From the NCBI GenBank assembly GCA_047967505.1, contig CM106538.1: a stretch of 64,000 nucleotides of DNA. One strand, given 5' to 3'. The notes beneath the pieces are model-generated. The model searched no databases, had not been told where the DNA came from, and saw only the letters and a list, made by a program, of their open reading frames with translations. A program made the position numbers and the translations under genes. This DNA comes from Dipteris shenzhenensis. Lineage: Eukaryota. Below are positions 1,791 to 26,642 of the stretch, one piece after another (positions within the stretch are counted from its first letter, which is position 1; the number at the start of each line of letters is the position of its first letter).

Positions 1791-2574
1791 TGATGGGGCT
1801 TTTTAGTGCCCATTTCCGGTATCTAATGAGGCACAACTTTCTTGGGTCGAGGTGGAGGTGGCGAAGTAATCATAGGAGCACATGTGGTAGTGTGGCAAGA
1901 TGCATGATGATAGAAGTGTTCTGCGAGGTCATGTCCCAGTCGCCATGCAACACCCTATCATCAAGGAGGGGTATTGGCGATCATGAATGCAATCTTTGTC
2001 ACTTTTCTACATGTACCTGTAGCAGTCCTAGCCTTCCTCACCACACTATTAGTTCTTTCAACTTCCTTCTCCTTCCTTGCTCTATTTGCATTCAGCTCTC
2101 TTTGCTTCCCCCTGCTTCACATCGTTGTGGTGATGGCACACGTGCAATTTCATCCTTTCATTCCACTAGTGTATATTGATTCTCAGTCTATTGATGCGTG
2201 TCTGCAAAGGCTGAGGATTAGAAGCTTCAACAGCATTGATTGGATGAAGGTGAACATTCACCCAGCAGCTTTAGCATCTGAGCCTAGGGTGGTCTTTCTG
2301 ACACCCTCGGTTGGATTATCTTTGTGGCTGCAACTGATGCATGTGCAGCTTCAGTTTTGTGTATAGCTGTTGTAATCTTGGCTTGCGATGCAATGTTCTG
2401 CGCGGACCGATCCCTCATGGTGCTAGAGACTAAATTTTTTCAGCTACACAGTAAGAATGAGGCCCTATGAAGTCAAAATGCAAGGATGCAACAACTAGAA
2501 GAGCGGGTTGTAGTCCTAGAAGCCCAAGTCCAGGTAGCCGAAGCTCACTCAGAGGCTACATAACCATTGCATAC

Positions 2575-3730
2575 TATTGGCTCTTTCCTATTGCTTTCGT
2601 AGGAAGAGCTGGGTTTTTCTATGTTGCAGGGTTCCGAGGCTTTTTGTCACCTACAGATATGTTGGGATTGTCGTTGTAGTATATGTGTAGCTTAGGACCT
2701 CGAGTCGTGTTCCGGTGAGAGACGTAGGCTTAAGTGTGGTAAGCGAACAAAGTGCAAGTATGTGTAAAAGGCACGTAAACCATCATTGTTGGGGTAATGA
2801 AGGCTTTCGCCTTCATTGGGGGTTGTAGGGTTTAGGAGGAGTTTAAAGGTTCAGAAGGAGGTTCCAAGGTTTAGAAAGAGTTCAAGGGTTCAGAAGGAGG
2901 ATCCAGGGTTTAGAAAGAGGTTCCAAGGTTTAGAAGGAGTCCAGGGTTAGAAGGAGAATCCAAGGTTCAGAGTAGAGTACATGGTGGAGAACTCGTCTCC
3001 CTCGTAGATCATGGAGTTTAAGGGTTTAGGAAAGCATAGGAGTGGGAGAGGAAGAAGGTGTAAGAGTATGGGTGAAAGAAGAGAGAGGAGGAAGGAGGAG
3101 GAGGGAAGAGGTGGAGGGAGGGGGAGGAGAGAGGAGGAGGAGGAGGAGGGAGGAGGAGGAGGAGGAGGAAGGAGAAGGAGGGAGGAGGAGAGGGAGAGGG
3201 TGGGTTGCAGGGTTGGAGAAGAGGGGAGAAGGGTTGCAAGGTTAGGACATGCTTTTGGACGTGCTGTGCAAGGAAGCATGGACACTTGAGACAAATGCTT
3301 GGAATACCAATGTAGACTCAACACAATGCCCCAAGAGTGTGGGCTTCATTCCATTATGGGGTATTTATACAAGTTGGAGAGCTTCTCTCTCTGCATGTAA
3401 CACAAAGTCGTATCACAAAGTTGTAACACAAAGTTGTATCACAAAGTTGTAACACAAAGTTGTGTCACAAAGTCGTAACACATTCTCTCTCTTCATGTAG
3501 AAGTTGTAACACAAAGTTGTTACACAAAGTTGTAACACAAAGTTGTAACACAAAGTTGTGTCACAAAGTCGTAACACATTCTCTCTCTTCATGTAAACAA
3601 ACTCGTAACACAAAGTTGTTACACAAAGTCGTAACACAAAGTTGTGTCTCAAAGTTGTAACACAAAGTTGTATCACAAAGTTGTTACACCTTCTCTTTCT
3701 TCATAAGTTCATGTTGGCACAGAGTCAACA
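2575..3730 (-). repeat. 3' LTR
   Basis: About 11 substitutions versus 17531..18686 (~99% identical, counted by eye). Ends on + strand read TATTGGCTCT...AGAGTCAACA; the terminal TG has mutated to TA. Confidence 0.96.
3397..3688. repeat. 13-bp tandem array (GTAACACAAAGTT)n inside the LTR
   Basis: About 20 units, periodically interrupted by cattctctctcttcatgta. The same array is at 18353..18644. Confidence 0.92.
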
Positions 3731-3764: not shown

Positions 3765-6272
3765 TTATCGCTTATTGCGATCACGTACCTGGGTTGCCAT
3801 GTTTTTAGTCCAGTGGCTGTGGAACTTGTGTCGTGCCAGTCGATCCTGCTGTAGAGCCTTAGCACCATACAATTTTTGCGCAGTGTCCAGGTAACCTGTA
3901 TCTACCATTTGCTCGAACAGAGATATGTGGCGTGCCTCCAAGAAGATTACTCTTTGATAGAGTCGGCTTGTAATCTGAGCATCAATCCGTTCATTGGGAT
4001 TAAAGCTGAGTGGAGGCAAATGGGAATCAAGGTAACATGGGACCTCCAAAATTAATTCTAATGTTTTGCAGAATATGGCACTTTGGCGAAGGAAGCGATC
4101 AATGTTGCCACGCATTGTTTGTTCATGCTGCTGAAGTGCTCGGATCATGGTGCCTTGGATATTCCATTCTACACTAGAGTAGGGTTCGATCATTGGCCAA
4201 TTAATGACTCGATCTTCAGCCAAAGTGTGTATGTTGGCTTCCCATTTTTTACGTCGTGGAACTGCATAGAACTTGGGATGGGTTCTGAGACATGGAGGTG
4301 CCCGTAAGTACTCCTTTAAGAAGCTTACATCAAAGAGCTTGGGACGGCGCCAATCAGGTTGTGGATCCAATTTGCTAATCCAACCTTCACTTATTTGATG
4401 CTGACGAAGGTTGGTAGGAAAGTTACCCAGGGTCCATCCACCGCGAGTTTTCATATCAGGATATTTGCTCCAAAATTCCTTGATGGGGTTACGGGGAAGT
4501 GGTATCTCATCAAAATCATACCCATCATTGGAACTTGGCATGGGTGTACGAATTGGATTATCCGGATCCTGATATTCAAAATCAAATACTGCATCATTTT
4601 CTACTGATGGAAGCACCAGAAGTGTCGGAGGTGATGACGGGGCCGGGAGAGAATCAGGGGACATGGGGGAGAAATATGGTTGAGTGATAGTGGCGGAAGG
4701 GGGAGCAGAGGGGAGGGGGGGAAGAAATGGGCAAATGGTTTGAGCAGCTTGGTAATCCTCAAGGGTAGGATTAGCAAGGGAGGGGGAAAAGCTAGGTGTG
4801 AGGGGCTCATAAGTTTGTGACTGTTGGGTAAGTTGAAAATGGTGAGAGGCATGAGCAAAGAGACGATGGAGGGAATAGATGTTAGGATGGAGCTCGGGGA
4901 AGGTTAAGAGGGTGGTAGCAGCAAGGGGAAGTGAGATTATGATGTTGGCAAAAAGAGTGGTTAGATATGGAAAGTTGGATGTGAGATAGGCCTTGTCATC
5001 TTCCGACACTTCTTTTTGCTGGTGCGATGGGATGATCAGCTGCATGGGTTGGATGTCGGTTATGTTGTGCCGTGCAAATAGTAGGGATGGCCTTTGTAGC
5101 AATGGCAACAAACCTGCAATAACCCTGAGGGGAGGACTACCCATGAGGCAGACATATGCAATGAAAGCATCCGTCCTGAGTGTTATAAACCCGGCATGTG
5201 TAAACATGCAAAAGATATTCTTCTCATCTTCAGACAAGTCTTGGCAAATTATGCGCAGGGTTTTAATCCCGATCGATCGTTTCCAGTTGATTGTTGGATG
5301 AGCAGATATGATCTGGAGTTGGAGTTGCTTCCATTGGATAAGCACGCGTCCGTTGAGGTGATCTTCCATTTGTAGAGCAGCCACAAGCTCTTCATACACC
5401 ACGGTTGTGCATTGTAGTGGGCCATCATTGGTGTTGTCTTCCAATGCCTCATTGTTGTGCACTAGCAATTGGAGTTCAAGCTTGGAGATGGCTATTTTTT
5501 GGGAGTGCATCTCATTCATTTTTTCTTTGTACTGATGGTAGATGGTTGTGTATGCCTCCTTAAGCTTTTTCATTTGCAAGGTGACCTTTGCCTGTTGAGG
5601 AATGTCTTCAGTGGTATTGGACCATTGGTCCAAGAACTGGGCTTGTGAAGTGCTGGCCTCTTGAACAGTAGCAAGTTGGTCTTTTAAGAGTCGGCATTCC
5701 CTTGTAAGCTCATCAATGCTAAAGGCACGTACTGCCAAAGATTGTTGCATGTCTTCAAGCTTGTCCTTGCAATCCTGAAGCTCTTCTTCTTTGTGAATGA
5801 GAGTGAGTCGAGCTTGTGCCACTTCCTCTGTTTGTTGCGCATGTGTAGATGTCAGGGAGTTATAGGAGGTCTGTAGGATTGCCATTGCTTCTACTGCTGC
5901 AGTCAACTGTGTTTGACTTTGGTGGAGGCTGGAGGTCACATCCCTTACGGCCTTTTCTTGAGCTTGGAGAGTCTGGTTCATGCGCACTTCTTCTACCTCC
6001 TTCTCATCTATCTGTGCTCGAAGTGCCTTGACCTCTATGGCAATTGCCTGGAATTGGTCTTCGATTTGTGATGCCGTCTGCCTTTCCAATTCTCTTGCAT
6101 ATGCTTCCTTAGCCAAGCTAGTGAAGAGTTCTGACATTTGGATCATTTGGCTAGCTTGATGTTGGAGAATGACAGACGGTGATGAGGTTTGGCGATATTG
6201 CTGATACAAGTGGTGCCCATGTAGCCATCCCGAGGATTCTGTAGTACTTGGGGGAGGTTGTTCCAATGGCAT
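3765..6272 (-). CDS. Retroelement accessory ORF B, 835 aa: long N-terminal coiled coil, Pro-rich linker, unknown Trp/Tyr-rich C-terminal domain
   Basis: Uninterrupted 2.5-kb ATG-initiated ORF on the gag-pol strand, stopping 34 bp before the 3' LTR. Heptad-like Q/E/L/K-rich segment at about aa 45-280. Confidence 0.8.
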   Translation of the reverse strand: MPLEQPPPSTTESSGWLHGHHLYQQYRQTSSPSVILQHQASQMIQMSELFTSLAKEAYARELERQTASQIEDQFQAIAIEVKALRAQIDEKEVEEVRMNQTLQAQEKAVRDVTSSLHQSQTQLTAAVEAMAILQTSYNSLTSTHAQQTEEVAQARLTLIHKEEELQDCKDKLEDMQQSLAVRAFSIDELTRECRLLKDQLATVQEASTSQAQFLDQWSNTTEDIPQQAKVTLQMKKLKEAYTTIYHQYKEKMNEMHSQKIAISKLELQLLVHNNEALEDNTNDGPLQCTTVVYEELVAALQMEDHLNGRVLIQWKQLQLQIISAHPTINWKRSIGIKTLRIICQDLSEDEKNIFCMFTHAGFITLRTDAFIAYVCLMGSPPLRVIAGLLPLLQRPSLLFARHNITDIQPMQLIIPSHQQKEVSEDDKAYLTSNFPYLTTLFANIIISLPLAATTLLTFPELHPNIYSLHRLFAHASHHFQLTQQSQTYEPLTPSFSPSLANPTLEDYQAAQTICPFLPPLPSAPPSATITQPYFSPMSPDSLPAPSSPPTLLVLPSVENDAVFDFEYQDPDNPIRTPMPSSNDGYDFDEIPLPRNPIKEFWSKYPDMKTRGGWTLGNFPTNLRQHQISEGWISKLDPQPDWRRPKLFDVSFLKEYLRAPPCLRTHPKFYAVPRRKKWEANIHTLAEDRVINWPMIEPYSSVEWNIQGTMIRALQQHEQTMRGNIDRFLRQSAIFCKTLELILEVPCYLDSHLPPLSFNPNERIDAQITSRLYQRVIFLEARHISLFEQMVDTGYLDTAQKLYGAKALQQDRLARHKFHSHWTKNMATQVRDRNKR

Positions 6273-6432
6273 TTCAGTCCCTTGTGTAGAATAGTCATAC
6301 TGCTAACTCTCCTTGGGGCTCATCGACTAGCATGGCGTCGATGGGCGGTTCGAGTGCTGATGTGGTCTTAAGCTCTAGTGCTGATCGTTCCTCAGGTTCG
6401 GGTGCCAACCTTGTCTCGAGCTCGGGTTGGTG

Positions 6433-7515
6433 CTATTGGTGGAGACTTAGTGGTTGCAGTTGTGCACCGCCGAGCTGAAGCATTTCCTTAGGCAATTCTA
6501 CAATCCTACTTTCCAGAATAGGTACTTCTGTTAAGGCATCTGTACTTATCAATGTGATAGCTGGAGCAGTTGATGATGGCTCCCATACTGGTGAGAAGGG
6601 TATGTCCAACTCCTCAATTGGCTTTGGAGACTGGGGCAGAGTCATTTCTCTTTCTTGTAGTTCTTTTTTGATGATTATAGCCAATAAGTGCGGAATTTTA
6701 CATTTCTGGCTTGAAGAACCATCGAGTTTTTTGGTAAAGAAAATGACGAAGTGTTGGACCCAGTCTTGTTTGAGCTTCCTACTCAACAAAACAAATGTGC
6801 GGAGTGGAAGGGAGCGTTCCTTGCCGTTCTTTATTCCCAGGATGGTGGATAGAAATTGTGCTGCTTCCTTGAGGCGAGGGTCAAGGATCGTGCGAAGCAA
6901 GATGCCATCTCTATGGATCAGGGTACCCTTAGTGAGGAGAGACTGTACTTCGATAAACTTTGCATCAGCAGACCGTTTAGGGTATTCGCCACCTTGTTTT
7001 GGCAGAGAGAAAGCCCTTTGAATGACTGTACTGTCGAGGATAATGTTCAGTGGGCTCTGCTGTACAGTGATTGTACCGTACTTGCCATCCGTTGCATTGC
7101 TGGAGTAGTAAGAGTGGAGAAAGTCCTTGATGTAGGTGGTCATGATAGGACTGTCCTCCAAGGATTTGAGGCTCTCATGCAAATTGCCTAGACCCCGTTG
7201 CTCTAAGTAAGATGTTGCTTCCTGGGAAAGAGCATAAGTCGATGTGGGTGGCCAGACAAGTTCCAATGATTGGGCCTTGTTAACGGTTGTGTAGGCCGGC
7301 TGGGGTGGCATTTGTTCTGCTTGGACATGCACTGAATCTTCTTCGGAGCTATCGCTTTGGACCACGAACGCCTGTGGTCTCCGTGGTTGAGAGGATGTAG
7401 ATGGCTGCGAACTCTGGAGAGGGTCCCGTGGTTGAGGCGGTGGGCTCTTTCTACGCATCCTCTTTAGTGGCGGCATCTTTTCTGAACCTGCATCCATGTA
7501 CATGTAGTGTACCAT
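6433..7515 (-). CDS. Retroelement accessory ORF A, 360 aa, resembling the Athila env-like / putative plant transposon protein domain
   Basis: Basic N-terminus MPPLKRMRRK (ATG 7476 is the probable start). YIKDFLHSY..GTITVQ..IILDSTVIQRAFSLPKQG resembles the VREFY..S.VRG..I....I...LGLP pattern (recognised by eye). Confidence 0.7.
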   Translation of the reverse strand: MVHYMYMDAGSEKMPPLKRMRRKSPPPQPRDPLQSSQPSTSSQPRRPQAFVVQSDSSEEDSVHVQAEQMPPQPAYTTVNKAQSLELVWPPTSTYALSQEATSYLEQRGLGNLHESLKSLEDSPIMTTYIKDFLHSYYSSNATDGKYGTITVQQSPLNIILDSTVIQRAFSLPKQGGEYPKRSADAKFIEVQSLLTKGTLIHRDGILLRTILDPRLKEAAQFLSTILGIKNGKERSLPLRTFVLLSRKLKQDWVQHFVIFFTKKLDGSSSQKCKIPHLLAIIIKKELQEREMTLPQSPKPIEELDIPFSPVWEPSSTAPAITLISTDALTEVPILESRIVELPKEMLQLGGAQLQPLSLHQ

Positions 7516-7852: not shown

Positions 7853-10800
7853 CTAACTAAGGAAGACTTGGTTTCCCAAATCTTCGTTTTTGTCGGGGAT
7901 GGCTCGCGTGTTGATGTAGTAGCGCTTCAGTCGGCTCCCGTTTATTGTTGTGTTGAATTGGACTCCATCTAGTGTTTCAAGTAGCACAGCTCCGATGGGA
8001 TTCATCTTTCGTACTCGGTAGGGTCCTTGACCTAGATACTTCAGTTTTCCCTTGTGTACTTTGGCATTGTATAACAGGACTAAGTCGCCTTCCTTGATGT
8101 CTTTAGCTTTCAGATTCCTCTCAAACCATGCCTTTCTTCGACGTTTTTCTGTTGTCATGGCATGATAAGCGACTAGTCTTGTCTCTGTATGCTTTTCCAA
8201 CTGACAGAGCCTTTCTTTCAAGGACTCATGATCACCCATGCGTTCCTGTATTGCGATGCGCAGACTTGGTATTACAAATTTGAGTGGGACCACGGCTTCA
8301 AGGCCGTACACCAATTGAAAAGGTGTGTTCCCTGTACTAACCTTGAATGTGGTTCTGTATGCCCATAAGGCTGCATTCAATTTCTCTGCCCAATCAGAAT
8401 GCTGTGGTTCTACTACTTTGGTGAGGATATTGCATATGATTTTGTTTGTGGATTCTGCTAGTCCATTCCCTTGGGGGTAGTAGGGTGTGCTTTTTCTATG
8501 GATGACCATGAAGCCAGACAAGAGTTCTTGAATTACCTCATTGACAAAATGTGTGCCTCTATCCGACACAATTTCAAGGGGGCATCCGAATCGGGTGATC
8601 ACATGTTCGTATAAGAATCTTGCTGTTGCTTTTGGCATCTGCCTTTCTGACTGCTTTAGCTTCAGCCCATTTTGTAAAGTAATCAGTGGCCACAATGATG
8701 TAGCGTGCCTGTGTTCCTTTTGCTGCTGGATGTATGGGACCCACATAATCAATCCCCCATTTTTCAAATGGTTGTTGTGCAACAACTGTTGTTAGGGGAT
8801 TGAAGTCTTTGTGTTGTGGTTTAATAGTTCGTTGGCATACATCATAGCCTTTTACATATTCATAGGCATCTGCCCACAGTGTTGGCCACCAGTAGCCTGC
8901 GAGGAGAACTTTTCTTGCTGTGGCTTCCCCTTGGAAGTGTCCTCCTGCAATGCCTTCATGGACTTCACTCAGGATTGGCAGGATCTCATGAGGCATTACA
9001 CATCTTCTTAATATCTGGTCCTTGCCCATCTTGTATAGTTGTCCTGCAATGAGTTGATAGGGTGCAGCCTTTAGAATCAATTTTCTAGCATCTACTGCTT
9101 TCATGTCAGGGGGTGGTCTTCCTGCCATCAAGTACCCAATGATATCTCCACACCATTCTGGAACAGCATCTATTTGAAATAGTGTGGCATCTGGTAAGTC
9201 GTCTTCTACTCCAGTGGCTTCTTCTCCTGTCTTGACTCGAGATATGTGATCGGCAATGTAGTGTTGGGCACCTTTGCGGACCACGATTTTGAAGTTGAAT
9301 TCTTGCAGCAAGAGGAGCCATCTGGTTATTCTTCCGATGGTACACGGACGGTTCACAAGATAAAGCAATGCTTGATGGTCGGTGTAGAAGACAAAATCAT
9401 TTGCGAGTAGATAGTGCCGAAATTTCTTTACACTATACACCATTGCTAGGGCTTCTCTTTCTGTGGTTGTATAGTTGATCTCTGCATCATTGAGTTGTCG
9501 ACTGGCGAAGTAGACGGGGTAGTCTTTCTTATGTTCACCAGGTTGACAAAGCACACTCCCAATTGCATACTTGGATCCATCAGTATGAACATGAAAATCA
9601 ATATCCCAATTGGGAGATATAAGGATGGGTGCTGTGATTAGGTGCCACTTTAAAAGCTCAAAGGCTTGGTCGCACTCTTCGGTCCATAAGAACTCCACTA
9701 ATAATTTGTAAAGTGGTCTAGCTATCATGGCATACCGCAATATAAATCTTCTATAATAGCCGGCATGTCCCATAAAGACCTGTACACCTTTGGAATTTGT
9801 AGGAGGAGGCAATTCCATGATGATTTTGATTTTGTCCATGTCAGTTGCAATCCCATGTTGAGAGACGATGTGTCCCAAAACAACTCCGTGGGTGACCATG
9901 AACTGGCATTTTGTTGGATTTAGGGAGATGCCATACTCCCTGCATTTGATTAGTACTTCTTCCAGACATTTGAAGTGGTCCTGTTTGGTTGAATGGATGC
10001 ACAAATCATCCAAGAACACCTGTAAAAACTTATTCAAAAATGACTTGAAAGCTGTGAACATGACTCGCTGGAATGTGGCTGGGGCATTACAAAGGCCGAA
10101 TGGCATGACTCTATATGCAAAAATACCCCATTCTGTAGCAAATGCTGTTTTTGATTGGTCTTGAGGAGCAATTTGCACTTGGTTATAGCCACTGAAGCCA
10201 TCCAAGAAGCTATATATTTCGGATCCTGCCACCTTTTCCAACACTGTTTCTGTTAAGGGTAGGGGGTAGTGATCCCTAATTGTGGCGGCATTCACATTTT
10301 TCAAGTTTACGCATATTCTGAGCTTCTTGTTGCATTTAGGCACAATGACAATGGGTGAAACCCAATCAGTGTGCTCTATCTCGTAGATGAATCCGGCATC
10401 TAGGAGTTTTTCCAGCTCATCATAAACCATGGCGCCATATTTAGGATTTGTGCGATAAGGTCCACATACCTTAGGGCGAGCACCTTCCCTTATAGGGATC
10501 GTGTGAACTGCCACTTCTGGTGAAATTCCTTTCATCTCTTTGTATGACCATCGCTGGAATGTGGCTGGGGCATTACAAAGGCCGAATGGCATGACTCTAT
10601 ATGCAAAAATACCCCATTCTGTAGCAAATGCTATTTTTGATTGGTCTTGAGGAGCAATTTGCACTTGGTTATAGCCACTGAAGCCATCCAAGAAGCTATA
10701 TATTTTGGATCCTACCACCTTTTCCAACACTGTTTCTGTTAAGGGTAGGGGGTAGTGATCCCTAATTGTGGCGGCATTCACATTTTTCAAGTTTACGCAT

Positions 10801-13800
10801 ATTCTTAGCTTCTTGTTGCGTTTAGGCACAATGACAATGGGTGAAACCCAATCAGTGTGCTCTATCTCGTAGATGAATCCGGCATCTAGGAGTTTTTCCA
10901 GCTTGTCATAAACCATGGCGCCATATTTAGGATTTGTGCGATAAGGTCCACATACCTTAGGGTGAGCACCTTCCCTTATAGGGATCGTGTGAACTGCCAC
11001 TTCTGGTGAAATTCCTTTCATCTCTTTGTATGACCATGCTAGGCAGTCACGGTATTCCATTAGGAGGTCTTTGAGTTTGATTTCATCTTCTTGACGGAGC
11101 CGTTTCCCAATGAAAACCAATTTTTCTTCCTCCCCTTCAAGGGCGAGGTTTATTGTGCGTGTTTTTGCCGGTCCCTCATAGATTGGAGTTTCTCCAATGC
11201 TATCAGTTTCTTGAACTTCAGATTCTCTGATTGGTCTTGGCATTGCTATTGGTGCACTGCCACTTGTATAATTCTTAAAGTATTCTGGCACTTCTCGAAG
11301 ATCGGCCTCTGATGGGGTTGAACTAGCCTGACATGTGTCATATGTACTGGGTGGCATAGTTGCATTTAGTAATTTGTTAGGCTCTTCTTTTCTTTCTTTG
11401 TCTGAAGTCTCTTGATCGAGCTTCATCCGCACATGTGGCTTATATTTCCGAAACTTCTTACGTTGGGAACTGTGGGGTAACTTTTCCACTAGTAAGGTGT
11501 GTCCAAGTAAGGGTTCATGTGCTGCACATACTCCTTCCAGTCCCTCAGGGGACCATTCAAGAGGTGGTGGTTTTGATTTTGTGGGAACTGCCTTTGCAAG
11601 GTACAATTCGACAATCCTTGTTTGGACTCGTTCGAATTCATTGAAGTGCTCGGCCTTGGCTTTTCTGCGATTTCCTCCTGCAGCTTTCTTGCGGGATCTT
11701 CTGCTGTTATGCAACTGTGGAGGTTCAACTTTTGGGAGCTCAATTGCCATTAGGGCATGCAGAATGGCTAGGTCATTATCAAAGATTTGATCTTCAATTT
11801 CAGCATTCGCAGCCTCTGTTTCAAGGTCCCAAGGAAAATCTGAGTCATCATTGGTATGGGTATCTTCTTCAGGTTCATTATCCCATTCGAGGTCAGCCAT
11901 AAAGAATGGCATCTCTAGATCGATTGGTTCTTCATGTGTCGGTGGAGGATCGACCTGTAGTGCGTTAACATCTATCTGTGAGAAGATGGGGTCTAATGAA
12001 TGGCAGTTATCGATGGTTGCCAATGTTTGTATCCAGTTATTGACATTGCTTTGTGAGTCACCTGCTATGGCATGCTGTTGCAAGGGATCTGATTTGCTCG
12101 AGATTGTCGTGGAAGATGTGTCATCCAATGCTCTAGGAACAATTGGTTTAATAACTCCTATCCCCACATTCACCCTGACTGCAGTGTCTCGATTCTAGAT
12201 TGTCAATCTATCCGTTCCCCAGTCATGGAGGACTGATGCTTCCCGTAACCAAGGACGTCCCAGTAAGATTTGATAGGATTTTTTGGGGAGATCCAAGATT
12301 GTGAATTGAAGGGAAAAGCGGACTCCTGCGATCTTTGTGGACACGCCATTCACTATTCCCAAGGGTTTAGCCCGTGAATCATCGGCAAGGCGTATGTTGA
12401 AATTAGCCTTTTGCATTGGTGGGAGACCCCATTCTTCGTAGAGCTCCTTTGATAGGACATTGACACCTGCTCCACCATCCACTATGGCTTGGACTTCATT
12501 ATATGCCTTGTGGATCAAATGCACAGTGATGTTGCGTATGTCATCTCTCTCACCCATCCGCACAGGGATATCTTCAATGTCATTCATAGGTGGAGGGGGA
12601 TTAACGAGTTCAATCCATCCTTTGAAACTCTCCCAGAGATTGGGACAATTTCGTAAGAGGATTCCGATGGGAATTGACACAGGGCAACTCAGGATGCTAG
12701 AGAGTGCAGCTCCTTCAGGTTGACGTGGCGGTACATTCTGTTGTGGAGTCTGTTGTTGGAACAAAGGCTCGAGTACAGTATCAATACTTTGTGGGGCCAA
12801 GTCATGGAGTGGGTCTTGAGCTTGTTTCTGAGCCTCAAATTGAGCTTGTTCATTTTGGACCCATTGTTGAAGTGCCTGAAAACGAGCCTTCTCCACCTCT
12901 GCATTCGGGAATGGAGCTTCTTTTATTCGAGGCTCAGGAGTTGATGTGGATGAACTCGGCTGCTCATTGCTTGGTGGAGGTGGAGGCACTTGTGCTTTCT
13001 TTCTCAGAAGTCGCTTCAGTTGGATTGGAATGATAGGGTCCTTCGTGGCCGCTTTCTGTTGGCGTGTAATTACATTGATAGGTTGTGACCTTAGACTTGC
13101 CGGCGGACCCAGACTTTGATGGTCCACCCCAATGATGCCGATGGGGATGTCAGGCTTAACCTCTGTTTGTTTTGGGACCTTATTTTTCATGGGACAATCC
13201 ATACAGGCATGTCCTATGCCACAATCTCTGCAGAGCGGTTGGAAAGTGGCTGGGCTACCACGATGAGGGCACTCTGCGATCCTATGATTTTCTCCACAAC
13301 CGTAACACTTGATTGGTGCTCGAAATGTATTGGGTCGCACTTGATTTGCATAGACTGGTATTAGACCCTCTGCACCTTCTACTTAGTACACTAGGTACTC
13401 TGCTTCATACTCAAATAGCGAGTCTACTTCCTCAGCTTGTAATTGATGTATGGGAACTGCCTGAGGAGCTGGATTTGGTGCTCTTGGATACGGTCGTGGA
13501 TTCGGATTCCTGAGTAGTTGTGGGACTTGTGTCCGAACGGGAACAGGATTTAGTCTCGGAGCTGGGGGCGCTTGTGGAAGTGCCGGTTGCCTGTATACTG
13601 GCATGGGTGCCGCTTGGTATTGTGGTGGTCGAGGTGGATTGTTGTGCATGTTGAAGATGCAATTGGTCTCATCATGGCCGCCGACGACACAGATATGGCA
13701 CCACAACCGTGGTGGTGGATTTGCTTGTGCAGTGATCCTTGCTCTTAGGACTGGGCATTCATTTGCTGTATGATTTGCCAAGCAGTGTGGGCACCAGACA

Positions 13801-14594
13801 TGTTCTCGCTGTGGATATGTTTGAGTTGGCGGCTGAGACAAGTGAAGTTTTTAATCCATGGCCTGCATCATATCTTCTTTCAGCTTCAAGGTCATGGCCT
13901 CGAGGCGATCTTCATTGGATGTTTCGGCAGTGTCCTTTGATTTACCTTTTTTCAAGCGCTTATCTCGTGTATTTGATCTGGCATCATCACTGCTAGTGTT
14001 TGAATCTGTCATGCCATCTTCGATGTCAATGGCTGCCGCATGAGCGGCACTGAATGTTTCATAGCTACTTATCTTTTTCATATCCTTGCAGATTTTCTTT
14101 CGTAGACCTGCTATGAACCATGCCGTGAGGTACTTTGCATCTGGGCGTGGGTCACATTTGGCGATCAATCTCTTCATCTTTCCCAGGTATGTGTGTACAT
14201 CTTCCCTCCGGCCTTGTTCGATCTTGCTGAGTTGGAGAGCGGGATCATCTTGTAGCCTCTCCGTTTGAAAGCGACGTTTGAATTCGGTTTGAAGTAGGTC
14301 CCATGTGGCACGTTCTTCCACAAGAAGGTCGAGGTACCATTCTGACGCCTCATCAGTTAAGGCCATTGGAAACCAAGCCACCTTAGTTTCATGGGATTGA
14401 TCACCACCTGCTCGACATGCGGCATCAAAATGCTGGAGGAAGCGAGCTGGGTCTCCCCTACCATTATATTTGGGAAGTTCCAGTTTTCCCAAGGGGCGTC
14501 GGCCGTGATTGTTGTGATTTTGTCGATTGAAGAAGTTGTCAGCCTCAGCATTGAGCTCGATATCCCCATCATGCTCATGACGGCGTCCAGCCAT
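7853..14594 (-). pseudogene. gag-pol polyprotein (Gag, zinc knuckles, aspartic protease, RT, RNase H, integrase), recently disabled
   Basis: ORFs 13851..14594, 13383..13841, 12195..13340 and 8574..12173 are in one frame, separated by single TAA/TAA/TAG stops (probably from CAA/CAA/CAG). There is a +1 frameshift in the run at 8630-8633. Motifs: IVDGGAGVN, DGFSGY, PFGLCNAPATFQR, FLDD, TDGSKYAIG, WGIDYVGP, SDRGTHF, GLAESTN, GPY. Confidence 0.95.
10065..11037 (-). repeat. In-frame 486-bp (162-codon) tandem duplication in RT
   Basis: 10065..10551 repeats at 10551..11037; WSYKEMKGISPEVAVH...FGLCNAPATFQR occurs twice in the ORF; about 8 nt differences. Confidence 0.95.
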
Positions 14595-15194
14595 GTTGGG
14601 GCGAGGAGGAGTTAAAGGAAGTTGTTGAATCTCAGGGGGGAGTCGGGGTAGAGGATTGGCGGGGGCGGTTGTTGCAGTGGAGTTAGTTGCGGATGGGGCG
14701 AGCGTTGGAGTCGAAGTCGTTGGCCGGAACGTAACTGCATGCAGATGGTGCGTGATTTGCCAAGGGTGTCGCTACCCCAAGGGCGTTGGTGGAGGTGGTG
14801 TTGTTAGGAGAGTTAGAGTGATGTTAGTTTGTGTAGGGACCGTCGTGTTAATAATGTGCCTAGGATTGTCCTACGTGTGTAGGGAAATGTGCCGGTGCAG
14901 ACGGATCGTTAATCGGAGGTCACGGCGTGAAAATACGAGTGAATTAATGCAAAATGAGGCCCACACGGGGGCGCGAATGAACGTGTGCTAGGGATGTCGA
15001 AATGGTGTGCAATGGGCTGGAAAAATACCCCGTAACGTGGTGTTTCCGTGAGTGAAATCTGGGTTCAAACGGGGTTCAATTTGGGTCCCAAACGGATGAG
15101 TTTCGAGAGGTTAAAGGAGGGGTAAATTTGGCGTTTTGGGGGGGTCCTAATGGTGGTGTGAATGGACTTTAAGTCCAACTGAGGGGTTGAAACC

Positions 15195-15510
15195 AAGTGA
15201 CTCTAGTTAGACTAACTAACCTAGATCCTCCCAGTTATTGTAACTGGAGGTTAACTAACTGTAGTTAGGTACTAACGAAAGAGTTAGTCTAACCTAACTG
15301 AGGTTAAACTAACCGAACCTAGTCTAACTAACTGAGGGTTAACTAAACTAACCTAACTTCAGTTACTACTAACCTAACCGACGTGAACTAATCTAATTGA
15401 GGTTAACTAACTAACCTAGGGTTAACTAACCTAACCTAACCTAACTTAGGTTATCTAACTAACCTAACTGTAGTTAGTCACTAACCTAAGATTAGTTTTA
15501 GGTTAGGTTT
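15195..15510. repeat. Degenerate CTAA/TAAC low-complexity tract with small hairpins in the element leader
   Basis: Dense ctaactaac/gttag units, e.g. hairpin ccagtta-ttg-taactgg near 15230-15248. Confidence 0.75.
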
Positions 15511-15532
15511 TTTTTTTTTTTTTTCAGACGCT

Positions 15533-16866
15533 GGGGGGACGCTCCGACGGCGGCGCCCGGGGGGGGTGGGGGGGGGGGTGGTTTTGCGCAGGGGGGTTAA
15601 CGCGGGGGGTGAGGGGGGGTTTTGCGCGGGGGGGTGAGGGGGGTTTTGCGCGGGGGAGGGCGAGGGGGTGCGCGGGGGGGGAGGGGGGTTTTGCGCGGGG
15701 GGCGGCGGGGGAGGGCGAGGGGGTGCACGAGGGAGGGCGGGGGGTGGCGCGGGGGGCAACAGGGGAGGGCGGGGGGTGGCGCGCGGGGGGGAGGGGTGGC
15801 GCGCGGGGGCGGCGCCGCGCCGCGGGGCGGGGCGGCAGTGGCGCGCGCGGGCGGGGCGGGCCGGGGGTGGCACGCGCGGGCGGGGGCCGCGCGGGGTGGC
15901 GCGCGCGGGCGGGGGGCACGCGGGGGCAGCGCCGCGCTGCGGGGCGGGGCGGGGGTGGCGCGCGCGAGCGGGGCGGGGCCGGGTAGCGGGGGCTAGGGGG
16001 GTGCGCGGGGCGGGGTAGCGAGGGCTGGGGGTGCGCGGGGCGGCGGCGCTGCGTGCGCCGCCGCCGTGGGGCGGGGGGTGGGGGGTTAGAGAGAGGGGGC
16101 GGGGGTTTACAGAGAGGGGGGGGTAAGGGGGAGGGGGTAAGGGGGAGAGAGAGGAGAGGGGGGGGTGGAGGGGCGAGCGTAAGGGGGGAGAGAATGAGGG
16201 GGAGAGAGGAGAGAGTGAGAGAGAGAGAGGGGGTGGGGGAGAGAACGAGGGGGAGAGGGGAGCGAGTGAGAGAGAGAGGGGGTGGGAGAGAGAGAGAGGG
16301 CAAAAAGGGGGGGAGAGGAGAGAGAGAGAGAAAGGGGGAGGGGAAGAGGGAGATGAAGGGGGAGGGGCAGGGGGGAGGGGGAGGTGGAGGGGGAGGGGGG
16401 AGGGGGGAGGGGGAGGGGGAGATGTAGGGGGAGGGGGAGGGGGAGAGGGGGAGGTGGAGGGGGAGGGGGAGAGGGGGAGGGGGAGATGAAGGGGGAGGGG
16501 GGAGGGGGTGGTGGGGAGGTGGAGATGAAGGGGGAGGGGGGAGGGGGAGGGGGAGATGTAGGGGGAGGGGGAGGGGGAGAGGGGGAGGTGGAGGGGGAGG
16601 GGGAGAGGGGGAGGTGGAGATGAAGGGGGAGGGGGGAGGGGGTGGTGGGGAGGTGGTGGTGGAGGGGGAGGGGGAGAGGGGAGGTGGTGGTGGAGGAGGG
16701 GGGAGGGGGAGAGGGGAGGTGGTGGTGGAGGGGGAGGGGAGAGGGGGAGGTGGAGATGAAGGGGGAGGGGGAGGGGGGAGGTGGTGGGGGAAGGGGGAGA
16801 GGGGAGGTGGTGGTGGAGGGGGAGGGGGAGGGGGGGAGATGGTGGTGGAGGGGGAGGGGGAGGTGG
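15533..16866. repeat. 1.3-kb extremely G-rich (+ strand) low-complexity tract in the element leader
   Basis: GGGGCGCGCG-type block (to ~16085) followed by a GGGGAG/GGTGGAG purine block; almost no T. Confidence 0.9.
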
Positions 16867-17510
16867 AAAAAAGAGGAAAAAAACCTGAAAGACTGAAATC
16901 GAAAAGCAGGGAGAAGTGGTCACCTGAACACTCTCCAAGTCTTTCTCGATGTAACGGGATTGTTGCGGAACAATGGACGGTGGGTGGAAGGCTAGGTCAT
17001 CGCTGCGAGAAGGGCTCGATGTCACTTACATGGCGAGGATAGGAGTAAGGGGGTGGTCGATGGAGAGGGAGGAGTGTCTTGCGTGGGGCTCAGAATGAGG
17101 AAGAGAATGGAGGCAAAAGTGAAAGATGAAGAATGAGGGGGGTGGAGTAGGTTTTTATAGGATTGGATTTTAGGTTTAGGGTTTAACCCTAAACTCTTCC
17201 CGAGCCATAACTCTTTATGTAGAGCACGGTTTGCTTTTCTGTAAAAAGGTAAAATGATCGAAATTGAAAGCTCTACGCAACCGTGTCCACTACCTAGCCT
17301 GATTATAGATCATGTGGCTTCTATTTAAGAAATTAAGAAAATTTCTTAAGGTAGTAACCCAAAGTGGATGTTTGGGGTTGATATGTTTGGCTAGAATTGG
17401 AAAAAATTTTTACTCTCCTTGCCCTTGAGTGTTATGTTCGTAAAAGTTTGAAGTAGTGACTTGTTTTACACATACCTACGTATGTTTACTCGCTACTTGA
17501 GACGCTAGTC

Positions 17511-17528
17511 TCCTCGGCAACGGTGCCA
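17511..17528 (-). promoter_or_regulatory. Primer binding site, tRNA-Asp type
   Basis: TGGCACCGTTGCCGAGGA lies 2 nt after the 5' LTR, with 2 G>A mismatches to the Athila-type PBS TGGCGCCGTTGCCGGGGA. Confidence 0.88.
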
Positions 17529-17530
17529 AA

Positions 17531-18686
17531 TGTTGGCTCTTTCCTACTGCTTTCGTAGGAAGAGCTGGGTTTTTCTATGTTGCAGGGTTCCGAGGCTTTT
17601 TTTCACCTACAGATATGTTGGGATTGTCGTTGTAGTATATGTGTAGCTTAGGACCTCGAGTCGTGTTCCGGTGAGAGACGTAGGCTTAAGTGTGGTAAGC
17701 GAACAAAGTGCAAGTATGTGTAAAAGGCACGTAAACCATCGTTGTTGGGGTAATGAAGGCTTTCGCCTTCATTGGGGGTTGTAGGGTTTAGGAGGAGTTT
17801 AAAGGTTCAGAAGGAGGTTCCAGGGTTTAGAAAGAGTTCAAGGGTTCAGAAGGAGGATCCAGGGTTTAGAAAGAGGTTCCAAGGTTTAGAAGAAGTCCAG
17901 GATTAGAAGGAGAATCCAAGGTTCAAAGTAGAGTACATGGTGGAGAACTCGTCTCCCTCGTAGATCATGGAGTTTAAGGGTTTAGGAAAGCATAGGAGTG
18001 GGAGAGGAAGAAGGTGTAATAGTATGGGTGAAAGAAGAGAGAGGAGGAAGGAGGAGGAGGGAAGAGGCGGAGGGAGGGGGAGGAGAGAGGAGGAGGAGGA
18101 GGAGGGAGGAGGAGGAGGAGGAGGAAGGAGAAGGAGGGAGGAGGAGAGGGAGAGGGTGGGTTGCAGGGTTGGAGAAGAGGGGAGAAGGGTTGCAAGGTTA
18201 GGACATGCTTTTGGACGTGCTGTGCAAGGAAGCATGGACACTTGAGACAAATGCTTGGAATACCAATGTAGACTCAACACAATGCCCCAAGAGTGTGGGC
18301 TTCATTCCATTATGGGGTATTTATACAAGTTGGAGAGCTTCTCTCTCTGCATGTAACACAAAGTCGTATCACAAAGTTGTAACACAAAGTTGTATCACAA
18401 AGTTGTAACACAAAGTTGTGTCACAAAGTCGTAACACATTCTCTCTCTTCATGTAGAAGTTGTAACACAAAGTTGTTACACAAAGTTGTAACACAAAGTT
18501 GTAACACAAAGTTGTGTCACAAAGTCGTAACACATTCTCTCTCTTCATGTAGACAAACTCGTAACACAAAGTTGTTACACAAAGTCGTAACACAAAGTTG
18601 TGTCTCAAAGTTGTAACACAAAGTTGTATCACAAAGTTGTTACACCTTCTCTTTCTTCATAAGTTCATGTTGGCACAGAGTCAACA
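17531..18686 (-). repeat. 5' LTR
   Basis: TG...CA ends with a 9/10 terminal inverted repeat (TGTTGGCTCT / AGAGTCAACA); flanked by the PBS and the TSD. Confidence 0.96.
18319..18325 (-). promoter_or_regulatory. Probable LTR TATA box (TATAAATACCCC)
   Basis: TATAAAT on the element strand directly downstream of the 13-bp array; the 3' LTR copy is at 3363..3369. Confidence 0.6.
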
Positions 18687-20949
18687 CATACGGAGCATGT
18701 TGCGGGAATTCATGATGAGCTATTATGATGACATACTACCAATGGACTGGCTCAGTATTTGTGAGTTTTCCTTGGCACGGCCAGTGTCAACATGGGGTAG
18801 ATGGGTTTGCTCCTTGATGCTTTGCAAGGGGACGTGCAAGCTGAGTGGGATAGATAATCACACACTGGCATGAGGCAATGGCTCCGTCGACATGCCATAT
18901 GGTTCCGCACCAATGTTGTCTAGATACGGATGGTGATGCGGGTGCCAGTGGCAGTGCGAGGTCAGTGCCGCAAAGTGGTCCTCAAGTGTAGGCAGTCTCT
19001 AGTTCGATGGGTTTGAGTACTTTCGTAGATGGGAGCGGTAATGCAAAAAAGGGTAAAGGGGTGGTTATGGAGTTAGTACCTACTGAGGAAGATTGGCACG
19101 CAAAGTATGAGGAATTGGTTCAAGACATTGTGGAAGTTGTTGCTCGCTCAGGTAGAAAGGTATAGGTTTCGAAGCGGCAAAAGCGTTCCCTTTGTTTTGG
19201 TTGGAGTTGTGTGCCCACTCCTTGCCCTCCTTGGTGGAATGAAGCGGATCAATTTTTGGAGAAGTTTTAGCATGTCCTTATCTCCTCGCTCTCCTTGGTG
19301 GAATGAAGCGGATCAATTTTTGGAGAAGTTTTACAATAAGCACACTCGTTTTCCTGGGCTGCCTGATCCCCTTTCTTACGAGCCAATTGTAATAGAGCAT
19401 CCAGCTACATAGGAAGAGAGTTGGCAACAAAAACTACCATAGGATGCATGAATTGAAGAGAGACTTCCTCTTGAGTAGTGGCCTGTGCATCAGCCAATGA
19501 ATTGGTCAAAACCGCATCCATTACAGTGGCTGATGGAGATGGAAAAGGATCGGCAGTTGAAGATATGGTTGCAGAAGAGGCAACAAGAGACTACTAATGC
19601 AAGTTTGAGTGGAGCTAAGCCTGCAAAGCAGTTGCTACCGGAGTTGAGTGAACGCAGTGATGTGGGACCAAGCAATGTTGGGGCTCCTAGTGCACACTTG
19701 CAGTGTGGCTCAAGGTTGGATGAAGAGTGAGTTCGCAATAGCAGTGGCTTTTGGGTAGCCTCGCAGTTTGAAGAGCACCCGGAGCGCTGTGTGCTATTGT
19801 ACAAGCAAGCAATGACAGCCCGATTCTTACTTCTTTAGTACAGATAGATTCGGAAAGAGATGCTTGTTTTCATGCATCCTTAGTGATTTGTTCGCATATT
19901 CCTAAGTTGTAGCTAGTTCTCTATCAAGGCTCTACCCAAAATGATTGTTGCATAGATATACGAGCGCATATTGATGTCTGTCATAGGGGATGGGTATCTA
20001 TTGTGGATTCACACAGTCCACCATGAGTGCCATGTGTTATTGCATAACCGTGAGGGTTAGCAGTAGTAATAACTGCGAGGGGTGTGCACAGGTAGGTTAG
20101 TCGCAATGGCTGACAGTTCGGGTCTTCAACGGTTCCTAACCGATATCTTGTTCTTGTATGCATGCTATTACTAGCATTCTGACTCTATTTTGCCCAGAGG
20201 GATATATGAGCTCTTGCTCTGAGTTGTATACATCTTATGCAGTGTTATGGTGATCATCTTCTTTTCTTGTTCTTTGTGTTTTCAGTAGATGATGCCTTGT
20301 ATTCATTTGTATACCCCGTAGTGCCTGTACGGTATCATGATGCTACAATTACCCTCATTCCTATCCACACTGAGGTCAAGATGCCCATCATGACACTATT
20401 ATGGGGTAATCCTACTGTATGGAGAGACCTCTCAGATTGGATGAATGGGAAAATATTGACACCCCAATCTCATGAGAAAGTTGTTGAATCTCCCAATCAA
20501 GCTCAAGACCTTCCAAGGGTGCCAATCAACAAACTCGGCCAATCCTTTGGTCCTGAAGATTCTTGGTATGCTCTTATACCTGAGTTAGAAGACTCACTAT
20601 ATTAGATGCATACATTGGCCACAATAGATCTGCCAAGTACGAAGGGAACTCAATTTATGCACCTTGACAATGATAAACCTACTAGCATTACACCTTTTTA
20701 CACCATAAGAGAGGTACTACCTAGTCAGGCAGCAAAACATTGATAGGGGGTCAAACAGTCATGAAAACCACACACTCCTACTAGTTCCGACTTGGGAGAA
20801 TAATCCATCCATGCTTAGACTTTATCAACGATCCAAAGCCCATAGTGGTTGCCTAGGAGAGAGGAAAGAATGTCCTTTGTGGCTCGGGAAACGACTGGAC
20901 CATGTGCGCATAATGAGTGGCCAAGTAAGAAGCACTTTGAAGACTTTGA

Positions 20950-23900: not shown

Positions 23901-24504
23901 ACACGGGTACTCACTAGGAATGATCTTCACCAATAATGAACCAACAACCATGACCTTTACACAATCTAGGGACTGGATCGATATCAGGAAGGGGGGAATG
24001 TTAATTGATTGGTTAACAATATGCCACCATTGGTTAGTGATGTCATTGGCAAGTCTGTAGAGCTAGGATTGTGCCTTGGATGCAAATAGGCCCAAGATGG
24101 TTGTAAAAGATCATATGAGGTCCAAAGAGAGTGGTATAAAGGGAATAGGGTTGGCCCTTGCTTCAGAAGGTTACATGTATAAAAGGCCAAGTGGTTGACT
24201 TTGCTCTTCATTGTTGGATGCACAAGTTTGGAATACAAGATCCCTCTTCTCTTCCAAGAATTTTTGTGGGTGTTCTCTTGTTTCCTTTGTAGTGCCTTCA
24301 TGTTTACCACTCCATCCTCATTCATTCTCCTCTTCTCCTCCCCTTCTCCCTCTCTTCCCCCATCTCTCCCCCCCCCCCCCTCTCTCTCTCTCTCTCATGG
24401 AAATGCATTGCAACAATCTGGAAGTCCCGCTTGATTGACACTTGTGGACAGCTCGTGCTTTGCATTGCTCTCACAGGGAGTAGCATGGAGTGGAGGCTCC
24501 ATCA
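20950..24504 (+). mobile_element. Decayed non-autonomous LTR element: protease-like relic, low-complexity QEP-repeat ORF, PPT and 3' LTR
   Basis: Protease-like HSIEGTSIKVFGFLTLNV..CKFFVIP (21250-21350); two W..K.L.E.QGY motifs; repeated CACAAGAACCT; PPT AGGAAGGGGGGAA (23986-23998) followed by TG. The left boundary is uncertain. Confidence 0.5.
23999..24504 (+). repeat. Probable 3' LTR (~506 bp)
   Basis: Starts with TG right after a polypurine tract; contains TATAAAAGG (~24178) and a CT tract; ends CCATCA. No partner LTR was found in the window. Confidence 0.45.
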
Positions 24505-24547
24505 GCATTCCTTTAAGATCCCCATCACACGTGAGTCATTGTTGAGA

Positions 24548-25430
24548 CTACATAGCATTTGGTACCAAAAGAATTTTATGTTGACATGATTTAGGTGGGA
24601 CTCTTGGAAAAGTGGTGTAATTCCAAGCAAAAACATCTTTGTACCTGGTGAACAATTCGTTGACAACCTGAAGTTGCTCGAAAGAAAGTTTGGCACTTAC
24701 CACAATAGTTGTAGGCTTGTACTCCATTCCAAGGTTTGTTCTTGTGTCGTTCGGCTGTGGAACTAATTGATCAGTTTCATGTCTTGCCAGTTCTCTTTCT
24801 CCTTCAACATCTTTGGTGAAGTTGCTCGAGAATAGATCTTTCTGAGCTGCAGTTTGCTTGGTCTTCATTTTCAGCTTGATATCAATTGTGCCACTTGAAA
24901 GATATTTATTTCTTTGATAGAAAGGATTTTCAATTCCATCAAGCATGATTCTACATCTTGAGGAAATGGGTCTCAACTTTTAAATCCTTAGGCCAGTAAC
25001 TATTCCGTAGCCGGTAACTATTTCGTACCTTTCAGGGGTTAGTGGGAATGCACACTTCCTTGCCATCAAATTTGATGATCATTTCCTTGGATCCCAATTG
25101 TGAAACACCTTAGCCCTCTTGAGCCAAGGCCATCCCAAAAAAATAGGATAGGCATTTGTTTCCATGGCAATCACAATGAGACTAATAGTGTAATGAATTC
25201 ATCCTATAGAAATTACAACATCCTGTAGCATACCTTTGGGGTTAATTGGTTGTTGATTTGCCATTCACACTTTGAAAGGAGATGTCTTGAAAGTCTTAAA
25301 CTTTAGTCATTTTTCAACATCTTTAGAAATAATGTTAACTCTTAAACTACCATCCATGATCACACCTAGTATAAATGTTTCTTGACTTCAATAGTGATGA
25401 GACTGGTACTTCCTCATCTACAAGATCATG
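24548..25430 (-). mobile_element. Decayed gypsy protease / pre-RT fragment
   Basis: GVIMDGS.RVNII..MANQQPINPKGML..YPIFLGWPWLKRAKVFHNW and ELFTRYKDVFAWNY...CQHKILL; interrupted by stops. Confidence 0.75.
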
Positions 25431-25965
25431 GGTATGGTAACCAAGGAATCTATTTCCTTTGGGTGTTCCTTAGATTCCTTGATTTATTGGGAAAAGAATT
25501 CATGGCAATATGGAGCTATTAGAATTAGTTTAGCAAAAGTAAGACTTATCTTCATGTTCTTGAATATTCTTGGTCCACACTTTGTTCTTTGTACTTTGAA
25601 AACTCGCCTAGTTCAATTGTTGAAAGTAGATGGAACTACTTGGATGGCATCTCAAATACCAATGCCTTGCCCTTCAATTCTCTGGCAATTTTAGTAGCTA
25701 CCTTGTTTTGTGACTCCTAGTTTATATCTTTGGCCAATGAATTATTGTCTGTAGAGGTTGCAACCGGCCCTTCAACCTCGTGATCACTTGGGCCTCCACT
25801 ATGTCTGGTAGTTCGGCTACAATTTCTCCACACTTTGGATCCACTTCTTTCCATTCCATATTGGTTTAAGGAACATCAAGCGTTCAGCCCAAATTGGACA
25901 TTCCAAATGAATATGATTCTCTCCATCTTCTCCTTGCCATTCTTGCCTTTGCCTTTATTCTCAAA

Positions 25966-26059
25966 CCCTTTTCTTCAGCCCACAGTGGCTTATATGAGTT
26001 ACCCTTGGACTGTATTATTAACTCATAGACCTATGAGGCCTCTCGATGATGATAGTACA

Positions 26060-26123
<64 letters not shown>

Positions 26124-26599: not shown

Positions 26600-26640
<41 letters not shown>
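25966..26640. repeat. Direct repeat (~100 bp plus (CT)n), two copies ~542 bp apart
   Basis: gcccaYagtggcttatatgagYtacccttgga...tacatctctctc at ~25978 and ~26520. Confidence 0.8.

Positions 26641-26642
<2 letters not shown>

Follow-up and report, generated by a model that had tools for sequence, protein, structure and literature searches.

The 64,000-nt stretch of Dipteris shenzhenensis DNA analyzed here (GenBank assembly GCA_047967505.1, contig CM106538.1), which as a whole we call the window, contains a 16,112-bp Ty3/gypsy long terminal repeat (LTR) retrotransposon on the minus strand, spanning LTRs at 2575–3730 and 17531–18686. Between the end of its pol region and the 3′ LTR lie two further open reading frames (ORFs), which we refer to as ORF A and ORF B. 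The second of these encodes a protein of 835 amino acids (aa) and is our main subject: judging from distant relatives of its sequence, ORF B represents a real, old and unnamed protein family that is probably element-borne.

Two open reading frames between pol and the 3′ LTR

ORFs were listed under the standard genetic code with ATG starts, which gave two intact frames downstream of pol:

3765–6272, minus strand: ORF B, 835 aa, intact, stop codon TAA (ORF listing)
6433–7515, minus strand: ORF A, 360 aa, intact (ORF listing)

The last pol ORF ends at 7853 and both ORFs are in the sense orientation. An earlier model-made note on this DNA (hereafter the sequence-only reading) had described two sense ORFs that take up the interval from the pol stop to the 3′ LTR, and this is what we find: 3,591 of the 4,122 nt in between are coding, and the TAA of ORF B falls 34 nt short of the LTR. 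Extra sense ORFs such as these are a known kind of feature in the ATHILA/OTA clade. The open frame of ORF B extends over 845 codons; in 1000 shuffled versions of these 4.1 kb, the corresponding length averaged 126 codons and never exceeded 243. Codon usage and GC content at third codon positions in the two ORFs resemble those of gag-pol (r 0.45) more than those of the one host gene in the window (r 0.25), a weak comparison that uses one reference gene.

The arrangement of the ORFs could also reflect exons or cistrons of a single gene, spliced across the 160-nt gap that separates them to give a product of ~1200 aa with a nuclear localization signal (NLS) at its start. The two share an orientation, ORF A opens one codon past a stop, and the frame of ORF B opens only 10 codons ahead of its ATG, all of which would suit such a gene. 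However, the open frames do not overlap, as that of ORF A ends at 6433 and that of ORF B opens at 6302, and the homologs found so far cover parts of ORF B only; we consider a single gene distinctly improbable and treat the ORFs separately in what follows.

In-frame stops in gag-pol (see below) prompted us to consider an alternative code in which TAA and TAG are read as sense. This was rejected, given that frames of 835 and 1206 codons are devoid of TAA and TAG; that ORF A ends in TAG and ORF B in TAA also counts against such a code.

Relatives and conservation of ORF B

A phmmer search with ORF B over 1.84 billion representative proteins returned four at E ≤ 0.001, all of which align to residues 600–834 (P0001, E = 3.4e-19 and 35% identity; P0002, 2.2e-8; P0003, 7.7e-8; P0004, 2.1e-4). 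These four are unnamed fragments from ENA or Logan assemblies. A five-sequence profile recovered nine proteins among 3463 candidates, again without names. One of the nine, P0009 (537 aa), additionally matches ORF B residues 311–394 (BLASTP E 4e-5, 29% identity, 87 columns), with GSPPLRVIAGL in ORF B facing GSMPLRTIAGL in P0009. The two parts of P0009 that match ORF B are separated by a proline-rich linker, and an architecture of middle segment, proline-rich linker and C-terminal domain is therefore common to both proteins. In alignments of the relatives (A1 and A4), which are 21–30% identical to ORF B, columns of W, R, P, N and D are invariant, and a basic tail closes most of the full C-termini. 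Overall, the C-terminal ~235 aa and the middle segment of ORF B are conserved at 21–35% identity across several divergent lineages, and it is because of this conservation and the 845-codon frame that we view ORF B as genuine and long conserved.

At the DNA level, three loci from JGI metagenomes encode relatives of the C-terminal domain, and in two of them an in-frame stop lies within the homologous frame. L001 (1–798) and L002 (2–952) have a single such stop each, and L003 is open throughout its 1029 nt (343 aa); stops in two of three loci fit decaying multi-copy elements. No locus was found for P0009 in metagenome contigs, for the relatives' alignment A3 in viral contigs or prokaryote genome contigs, or for ORF B in viral contigs.

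Other searches with ORF B were negative. A word-indexed homolog search gave no match at near lengths and a protein language-model Atlas no usable match; no Pfam family matches ORF B or four of its relatives, and the A1 profile against PDB sequences produced chance rows only (an Argonaute, E 0.032). The literature searched contains no description of the C-terminal domain, which may previously have been catalogued in the supplements of Neumann et al. 2019, outside that search.

These results bear on the possibility that the element acquired ORF B from its host by transduction, either as a complete gene or as a piece of one. Retroelements do capture genes (Vicient and Casacuberta 2020), and the multi-domain architecture of ORF B looks cellular. 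Nevertheless, no named or cellular homolog emerged from three large searches (in databases that may under-represent plants and algae), the relatives are all unnamed fragments with in-frame stops in two of the three loci for which there is DNA, and the codon usage, weak as that comparison is, lies closer to gag-pol than to the neighboring host gene. We regard gene capture as very improbable indeed. A confident match to a captured host gene or to a described env-like protein, which the sequence-only reading had set as one refutation of its proposal, was not found for ORF B, and its proposal of an undescribed accessory protein agrees with conserved but unnamed relatives and the absence of a Pfam family, named homolog or fold match in our searches.

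Architecture and predicted structure of ORF B

From its N-terminus to its C-terminus, ORF B can be divided into the following parts:

5433–6176, minus strand: N-terminal coiled-coil-like region, aa ~33–280 (proline-free stretch and periodicity)
5091–5342, minus strand: middle segment, aa 311–394, conserved with P0009 (BLASTP E 4e-5)
4899–4955, minus strand: hydrophobic segment, aa 440–458, a possible membrane helix (Kyte-Doolittle 1.87)
4473–4820, minus strand: proline-rich linker, aa ~485–600 (13 and 12 prolines in consecutive 60-aa blocks)
3768–4475, minus strand: C-terminal conserved helical domain, aa ~600–835, with basic tail (phmmer, alignments and structure model)

This layout is largely the one that the sequence-only reading had given. 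Its hydrophobic middle corresponds to segments at 374–392 and 440–458 (19-aa means of 1.63 and 1.87, respectively, on the Kyte-Doolittle (KD) scale), its proline linker to 25 prolines in residues 481–600, and its aromatic-rich C-terminal domain is present. It had also placed a coiled coil of ~230 aa near the N-terminus. Residues 33–224 are indeed free of proline (192 aa) and a 3.5-residue periodicity is raised over ~29–266, but coiled-coil Pfam matches in this region are weak and sub-threshold; our designation of the region as coiled-coil-like derives from these heuristics, as opposed to a coiled-coil program. The absence of an evident signal peptide holds for both ORFs as far as hydropathy can tell, given that both N-termini are hydrophilic and that ORF B has no 19-aa peak with a KD of at least 1.2 before residue 353.

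Structure prediction with AlphaFold2 (AF2) performed poorly on residues 280–835, with a mean predicted local distance difference test score (pLDDT) of 44 and, in the linker, a pLDDT below 50 and no secondary structure; the Foldseek rows obtained with this model were disregarded. The C-terminal domain modeled alone from 12 sequences is all-helical, with a mean pLDDT of 64.4, a predicted template modeling score of 0.59 and a core at 76–89. Foldseek comparison of this second model with PDB returned nothing at E ≤ 0.001 (best 0.26), nor did a search of BFVD (best E 0.53), and VIA-align returned nothing at Z ≥ 5 from 48,161 chains; the best VIA-align row, a phage integrase N-domain (Z 4.4, root-mean-square deviation 4.4 Å, 91 residues), is uninformative for helical models. 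The AlphaFold and Foldseek check that had been proposed for ORF B thus gave no fold match, with one model moderate and the other poor. A profile of the C-terminal domain aligned by hhalign to the gag of the element and to ORF A reached probabilities of 0.2–0.3%, and we therefore see no internal homology of this domain with either.

Several of these features invite comparison with envelope proteins. ORF B resembles retroviral and errantiviral Env, as well as plant env-like proteins, in its sense-strand location after pol and ahead of the 3′ LTR, its long coiled-coil-like region and its one hydrophobic segment, and plant ATHILA/Calypso 3′ ORFs have been named env-like on such features (Diaspora paper; Vicient and Casacuberta 2020). 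It could accordingly be an env-like membrane protein anchored by residues 440–458, with a fusion-type coiled coil, that serves the cell-to-cell spread of particles, and the second hydrophobic segment at 374–392 can be counted on the same side. ORF B differs from such proteins, however, in its hydrophilic N-terminus, where the first 350 residues lack a signal-like peak, and in the absence of a BFVD match at the threshold above for its C-terminal domain, the one part modeled well enough to be searched. Across the corresponding middle region, P0009 and P0014 attain a KD of no more than ~1.0, such that the hydrophobic segment at 440–458 has no equally hydrophobic counterpart in either, and what is conserved instead is a helical module with a basic tail. 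Coiled coils and transmembrane helices are, moreover, too common to support an Env assignment (Ustyantsev 2015). We consider an env-like ORF B unlikely, if less so than the single gene discussed above.

ORF A and the ATHILA ORF

ORF A begins KMPPLKRMRRKSPPP and has a hydrophilic N-terminus with no hydrophobic peak. The basic, NLS-like start noticed in the sequence-only reading is found as the motif KRMRRK at aa 18–23 (nt ~7447–7464). HMMER searches of Pfam with the whole protein and three sub-windows returned nothing at E ≤ 10, PF03078 and PF20167 included; a word-indexed protein search found no homolog, and a comparison with PDB sequences gave chance rows only (Actinohivin, E 0.32). The language-model Atlas recognizes ORF A as protein-like (recognition 2728) and places it nearest to clusters of Streptophyta hypothetical proteins (0.92, 0.91 and 0.91); a PF03078 ATHILA cluster (0.90) is also among its neighbors, as are PF20167 Transposase_32 clusters (0.90), which account for 19/30 matches.

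Because of its position, its NLS-like motif and these Atlas neighbors, ORF A probably corresponds to the ATHILA ORF/Transposase_32-like protein that follows pol directly in other ATHILA elements, an assignment that we offer as a lead only. The earlier proposal of an env-like/plant-transposon domain stands to the same extent: the Atlas neighbors point to PF03078 and PF20167, but the HMMER search does not. The closest published parallel is the aORF(+) of sunflower 'Athila 14', a 487-aa 3′ ORF in the sense orientation that has an NLS and matches PF20167 in part (PMC11728184). Like it, ORF A lies directly after pol in the sense orientation, carries an NLS-like motif and has PF20167 and PF03078 neighbors in the Atlas; unlike it, ORF A has no HMMER match to either family at E ≤ 10, and the relation between the two is likewise a lead. 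PF03078 itself has been reported in only 16% of ATHILA elements (Neumann et al. 2019), and the ATHILA ORF in 673/2,322 Brassicaceae elements, about a quarter, where it may not be essential (ATHILAfinder preprint). As it is present in a minority of ATHILA elements, PF03078 is therefore not clade-defining.

Anatomy and class of the element

The remaining features of the element, which in the direction of transcription run from high to low coordinates, are as follows:

18687–18691, minus strand: target-site duplication GTATG, 5′ side (direct reading)
17531–18686, minus strand: 5′ LTR, TG...CA (blastn, ends read)
17516–17528, minus strand: primer-binding site TGGCACCGTTGCC, 2 nt past the 5′ LTR (match to the ATHILA motif)
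14772–17509, minus strand: long 5′ leader with tandem arrays, G-rich on the plus strand, at ~15624–16867 (GC up to 0.77; tandem-repeat search)
13851–14771, minus strand: gag, first ATG 14594, TAA at 13851, in the frame of pol (Retrotrans_gag 3.9e-13)
12195–13850, minus strand: protease-containing part of the polyprotein, in-frame stops at 12195 (TAG) and 13383 (TAA) (aspartyl protease matches)
8574–12194, minus strand: reverse transcriptase (RT), RNase H, integrase zinc finger and start of the integrase core (RVT_1 1.5e-40, RT_RNaseH 1.9e-32, Integrase_H2C2 1e-7)
7853–8791, minus strand: C-terminal half of the integrase core and C-terminal region, in a frame that differs from upstream pol (rve match)
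2575–3730, minus strand: 3′ LTR, 1156 bp, TG...TA end (blastn, ends read)
2570–2574, minus strand: target-site duplication GTATG, 3′ side (direct reading; the pentamer recurs at 18687–18691)
3383–3689 and 18339–18645: 13-nt/96-nt LTR repeats (tandem-repeat reading)

The LTRs are 99.13% identical over 1154 bp by blastn (2577–3730 and 17533–18686), to which reading of the ends adds two bases. They start with TGTTGA and finish with CCAACA, or CCAATA in the 3′ copy, and are flanked by the perfect 5-bp duplication. The aligned LTRs differ at 10 positions, eight of them transitions, and their observed/expected CpG ratio is 0.55. The insertion is recent, and the window holds a single copy of the element.

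Pfam matches give the order gag, protease, RT, RNase H and integrase on the minus strand. For the primer-binding site we used the motif TGGCGCCGTTGCC, which the ATHILAfinder preprint gives as the conserved ATHILA site for tRNA-Asp/Asn; a tRNA-Asp site has also been reported for the Calypso/Diaspora group (Diaspora paper). The window contains a single match to this motif with at most one mismatch (it has one), where 0.01 would be expected by chance. No chromodomain follows the integrase at Pfam E ≤ 10, the integrase C-terminal ORF giving only rve and a chance RyR match. There is also no second (archaeal-type) RNase H: the only families at E ≤ 0.1 are RT_RNaseH and RT_RNaseH_2, which share one stretch, and neither ORF A nor ORF B matches an RNase H family in Pfam. 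Neumann et al. 2019 place non-chromoviral plant elements in the OTA superclade and two small clades, and within OTA they separate Tat from Athila by an additional RNase H that Tat has and Athila lacks; they also report that extra ORFs, large non-coding regions and tandem repeats occur in most OTA elements.

Because of the primer-binding motif, the lack of a chromodomain and of a second RNase H, the 2.7-kb repeat-bearing leader and the LTR repeats, we accept the element as Athila-type on structure, the label that it had been given from the outset. In common with other members of the ATHILA lineage (Athila, Calypso, Cyclops, Bagy-2), it has a non-chromoviral gag-pol, a TGGCGCCGTTGCC-type primer-binding site near the LTR, LTRs exceeding 1 kb, a long repeat-bearing leader, a 5-bp target-site duplication and one or more extra ORFs in sense downstream of pol. 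A difference is that these ORFs are two in succession where the lineage has one, that neither matches PF03078 by HMMER, and that the conserved domain of ORF B has no named counterpart.

Repeats are found throughout the non-coding parts of the element. The leader, ~2.7 kb from primer-binding site to gag, contains arrays with periods of 6, 32, 45–58, 117 and 134 that are G-rich on the plus strand, with a GC content up to 0.77, together with low-complexity frames, open for as many as 514 codons, that are not genes. Near its 5′ end each LTR carries ~22 copies of the 13-nt unit TGTAACACAAAGT in 96-nt higher-order repeats, and a 39/59-nt repeat also lies within the LTRs (2829–2971 and 17783–17925).

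State of this copy

A single frame runs from gag into the beginning of the integrase core, interrupted by in-frame stops at 13851 (TAA), 13383 (TAA) and 12195 (TAG), the first of which is possibly native to gag. The remainder of integrase is in another frame, which implies one frameshift in pol. Inside RT there is a 486-bp tandem duplication (10060–11040, minus strand) that keeps the frame, such that part of RT is encoded twice. Its units are 97.8% alike, with 11/498 differences compared to 10/1154 for the LTRs (Fisher p 0.03), although several of these are alignment-edge effects; this hints that the duplication may be older than the insertion and that the copy may have been mobilized in trans.

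Given this state, one may postulate that ORF A and ORF B are inert leftovers that were coding in an ancestor, are of no further use to the family, and owe their intactness here solely to the young age of the insertion. With LTRs ~1% different, the neutral probability that both have stayed open since insertion is ~0.48, the gag-pol of this very copy is broken, and the ATHILA ORF may be dispensable, as the Brassicaceae counts above indicate. The neutral probability means that intactness in this copy is no evidence of selection, on which frame length and relatives alone bear. An 845-codon frame and 21–35% identity across lineages, however, require long purifying selection at the level of the family, and we find it improbable that the ORFs are inert.

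Interpretation of ORF B

The explanation that best fits our observations is that of a young ATHILA-type element in which ORF A is likely the ATHILA ORF and ORF B is a conserved intracellular accessory protein; we assign this combination a probability of roughly 0.6. Its parts differ in strength. That ORF B is a conserved, element-borne accessory protein appears very likely, and that it acts inside the cell rather than as an envelope we judge to be an even call. A nuclear or scaffolding role, as suggested by the sequence-only reading, is plausible, but the segment at 440–458 keeps a membrane reading open.

If ORF B is an accessory protein of this kind, its mRNA would be a spliced, subgenomic transcript, in keeping with reports on other 3′ ORFs of plants; for Bagy-2-type ORFs a subgenomic transcript has been described (Vicient and Casacuberta 2020). 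The protein might then oligomerize through its N-terminal coiled-coil-like rod, and its helical, basic-tailed C-terminal domain might bind an intracellular partner, be it element RNA or cDNA, Gag particles or a host factor. On such a mechanism ORF B would be an intracellular accessory or scaffold protein and not a membrane-fusing envelope.

Oligomerizing coiled coils that precede a nucleic-acid- or capsid-binding domain, or a basic tail, occur in LINE-1 ORF1p and in the caulimovirus virion-associated protein. The likeness of ORF B to these proteins lies in its putative architecture, and we draw it as an analogy and not as membership.

Several observations weigh against this interpretation. The Atlas scores of 0.90–0.92 that place ORF A near the ATHILA families are reached by 4–10 of 100 shuffled proteins, and the best family-bearing matches agree in 2/10. 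The three metagenome loci are too short to reach an upstream integrase, and the link between the ORF B family and retroelements rests on this window and the decay pattern. Residues 440–458, with a KD of 1.87, could be a membrane helix. Given the moderate model of the C-terminal domain (pLDDT 64) and the poor model of residues 280–835, the absence of fold matches is weak evidence. Finally, the three in-frame stops, the frameshift and the RT duplication mean that gag-pol is already broken in this copy, and the neutral chance of ~0.48 that both ORFs stay open belongs on the same side.

A bolder version would hold that the middle segment and C-terminal domain of ORF B constitute an ancient, undescribed, ATHILA-related accessory family whose fold has no solved relative, maintained by selection over widely separated lineages and acting intracellularly, for example as an oligomer that binds element RNA or particles or in countering silencing. 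We put this forward tentatively, as a possibility that is itself less likely than not to hold in full; if true, plant 'endogenous retrovirus-like' elements would possess a second, conserved, non-envelope class of gene.

The accessory-protein interpretation can be set against surveys of extra ORFs (eORFs) in plant elements. In Neumann et al. 2019, eORFs no shorter than 250 codons, drawn from 3,372 Ty3/gypsy elements, fell into 314 similarity groups, and only 21.4% of all eORF proteins had a CDD match or known domain; env-like proteins, for their part, share little sequence similarity (Diaspora paper). ORF B resembles the unassigned groups of that survey in exceeding 250 codons, lying outside the polyprotein and having no known domain, which is the most frequent case among eORFs. 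It differs in that its conservation, at 21–35% across lineages, exceeds what the text of the paper calls typical.

Extra ORFs after pol are common in Ogre, Tat and Athila elements, none has an established function, and divergence precludes comparing most of them from one family to another. What sets ORF B apart is that it has recognizable relatives, which yield an alignment, a set of conserved residues for mutagenesis and a boundary at which the domain can be cut out for expression. It therefore offers a workable entry point to the function of such extra genes; by itself it leaves the understanding of these elements unchanged.

Surroundings in the window

Scans of the window with Rfam at gathering thresholds and with ARAGORN gave no matches and no tRNAs, respectively. 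At 52877–53671 all six frames are open (both strands have ORFs of 142–264 codons) and the longest frame has no Pfam match; the region is probably low-complexity or repeat DNA. Long CT- and C-rich microsatellite tracts occupy 24330–26670, together with a pair of 155-nt repeats at a spacing of 542 nt, and a 330-bp tandem repeat in two copies that are 95% alike lies just outside the element at 42–706. The neighboring host gene, ~9.6 kb from the element, is of a plant type that marks the genome as that of a streptophyte. It is a beta-tubulin gene at 28327–30078 on the minus strand (Tubulin 5.1e-32, Tubulin_C 7.2e-42 in Pfam), the first exon of which ends after ...CDCLQG.

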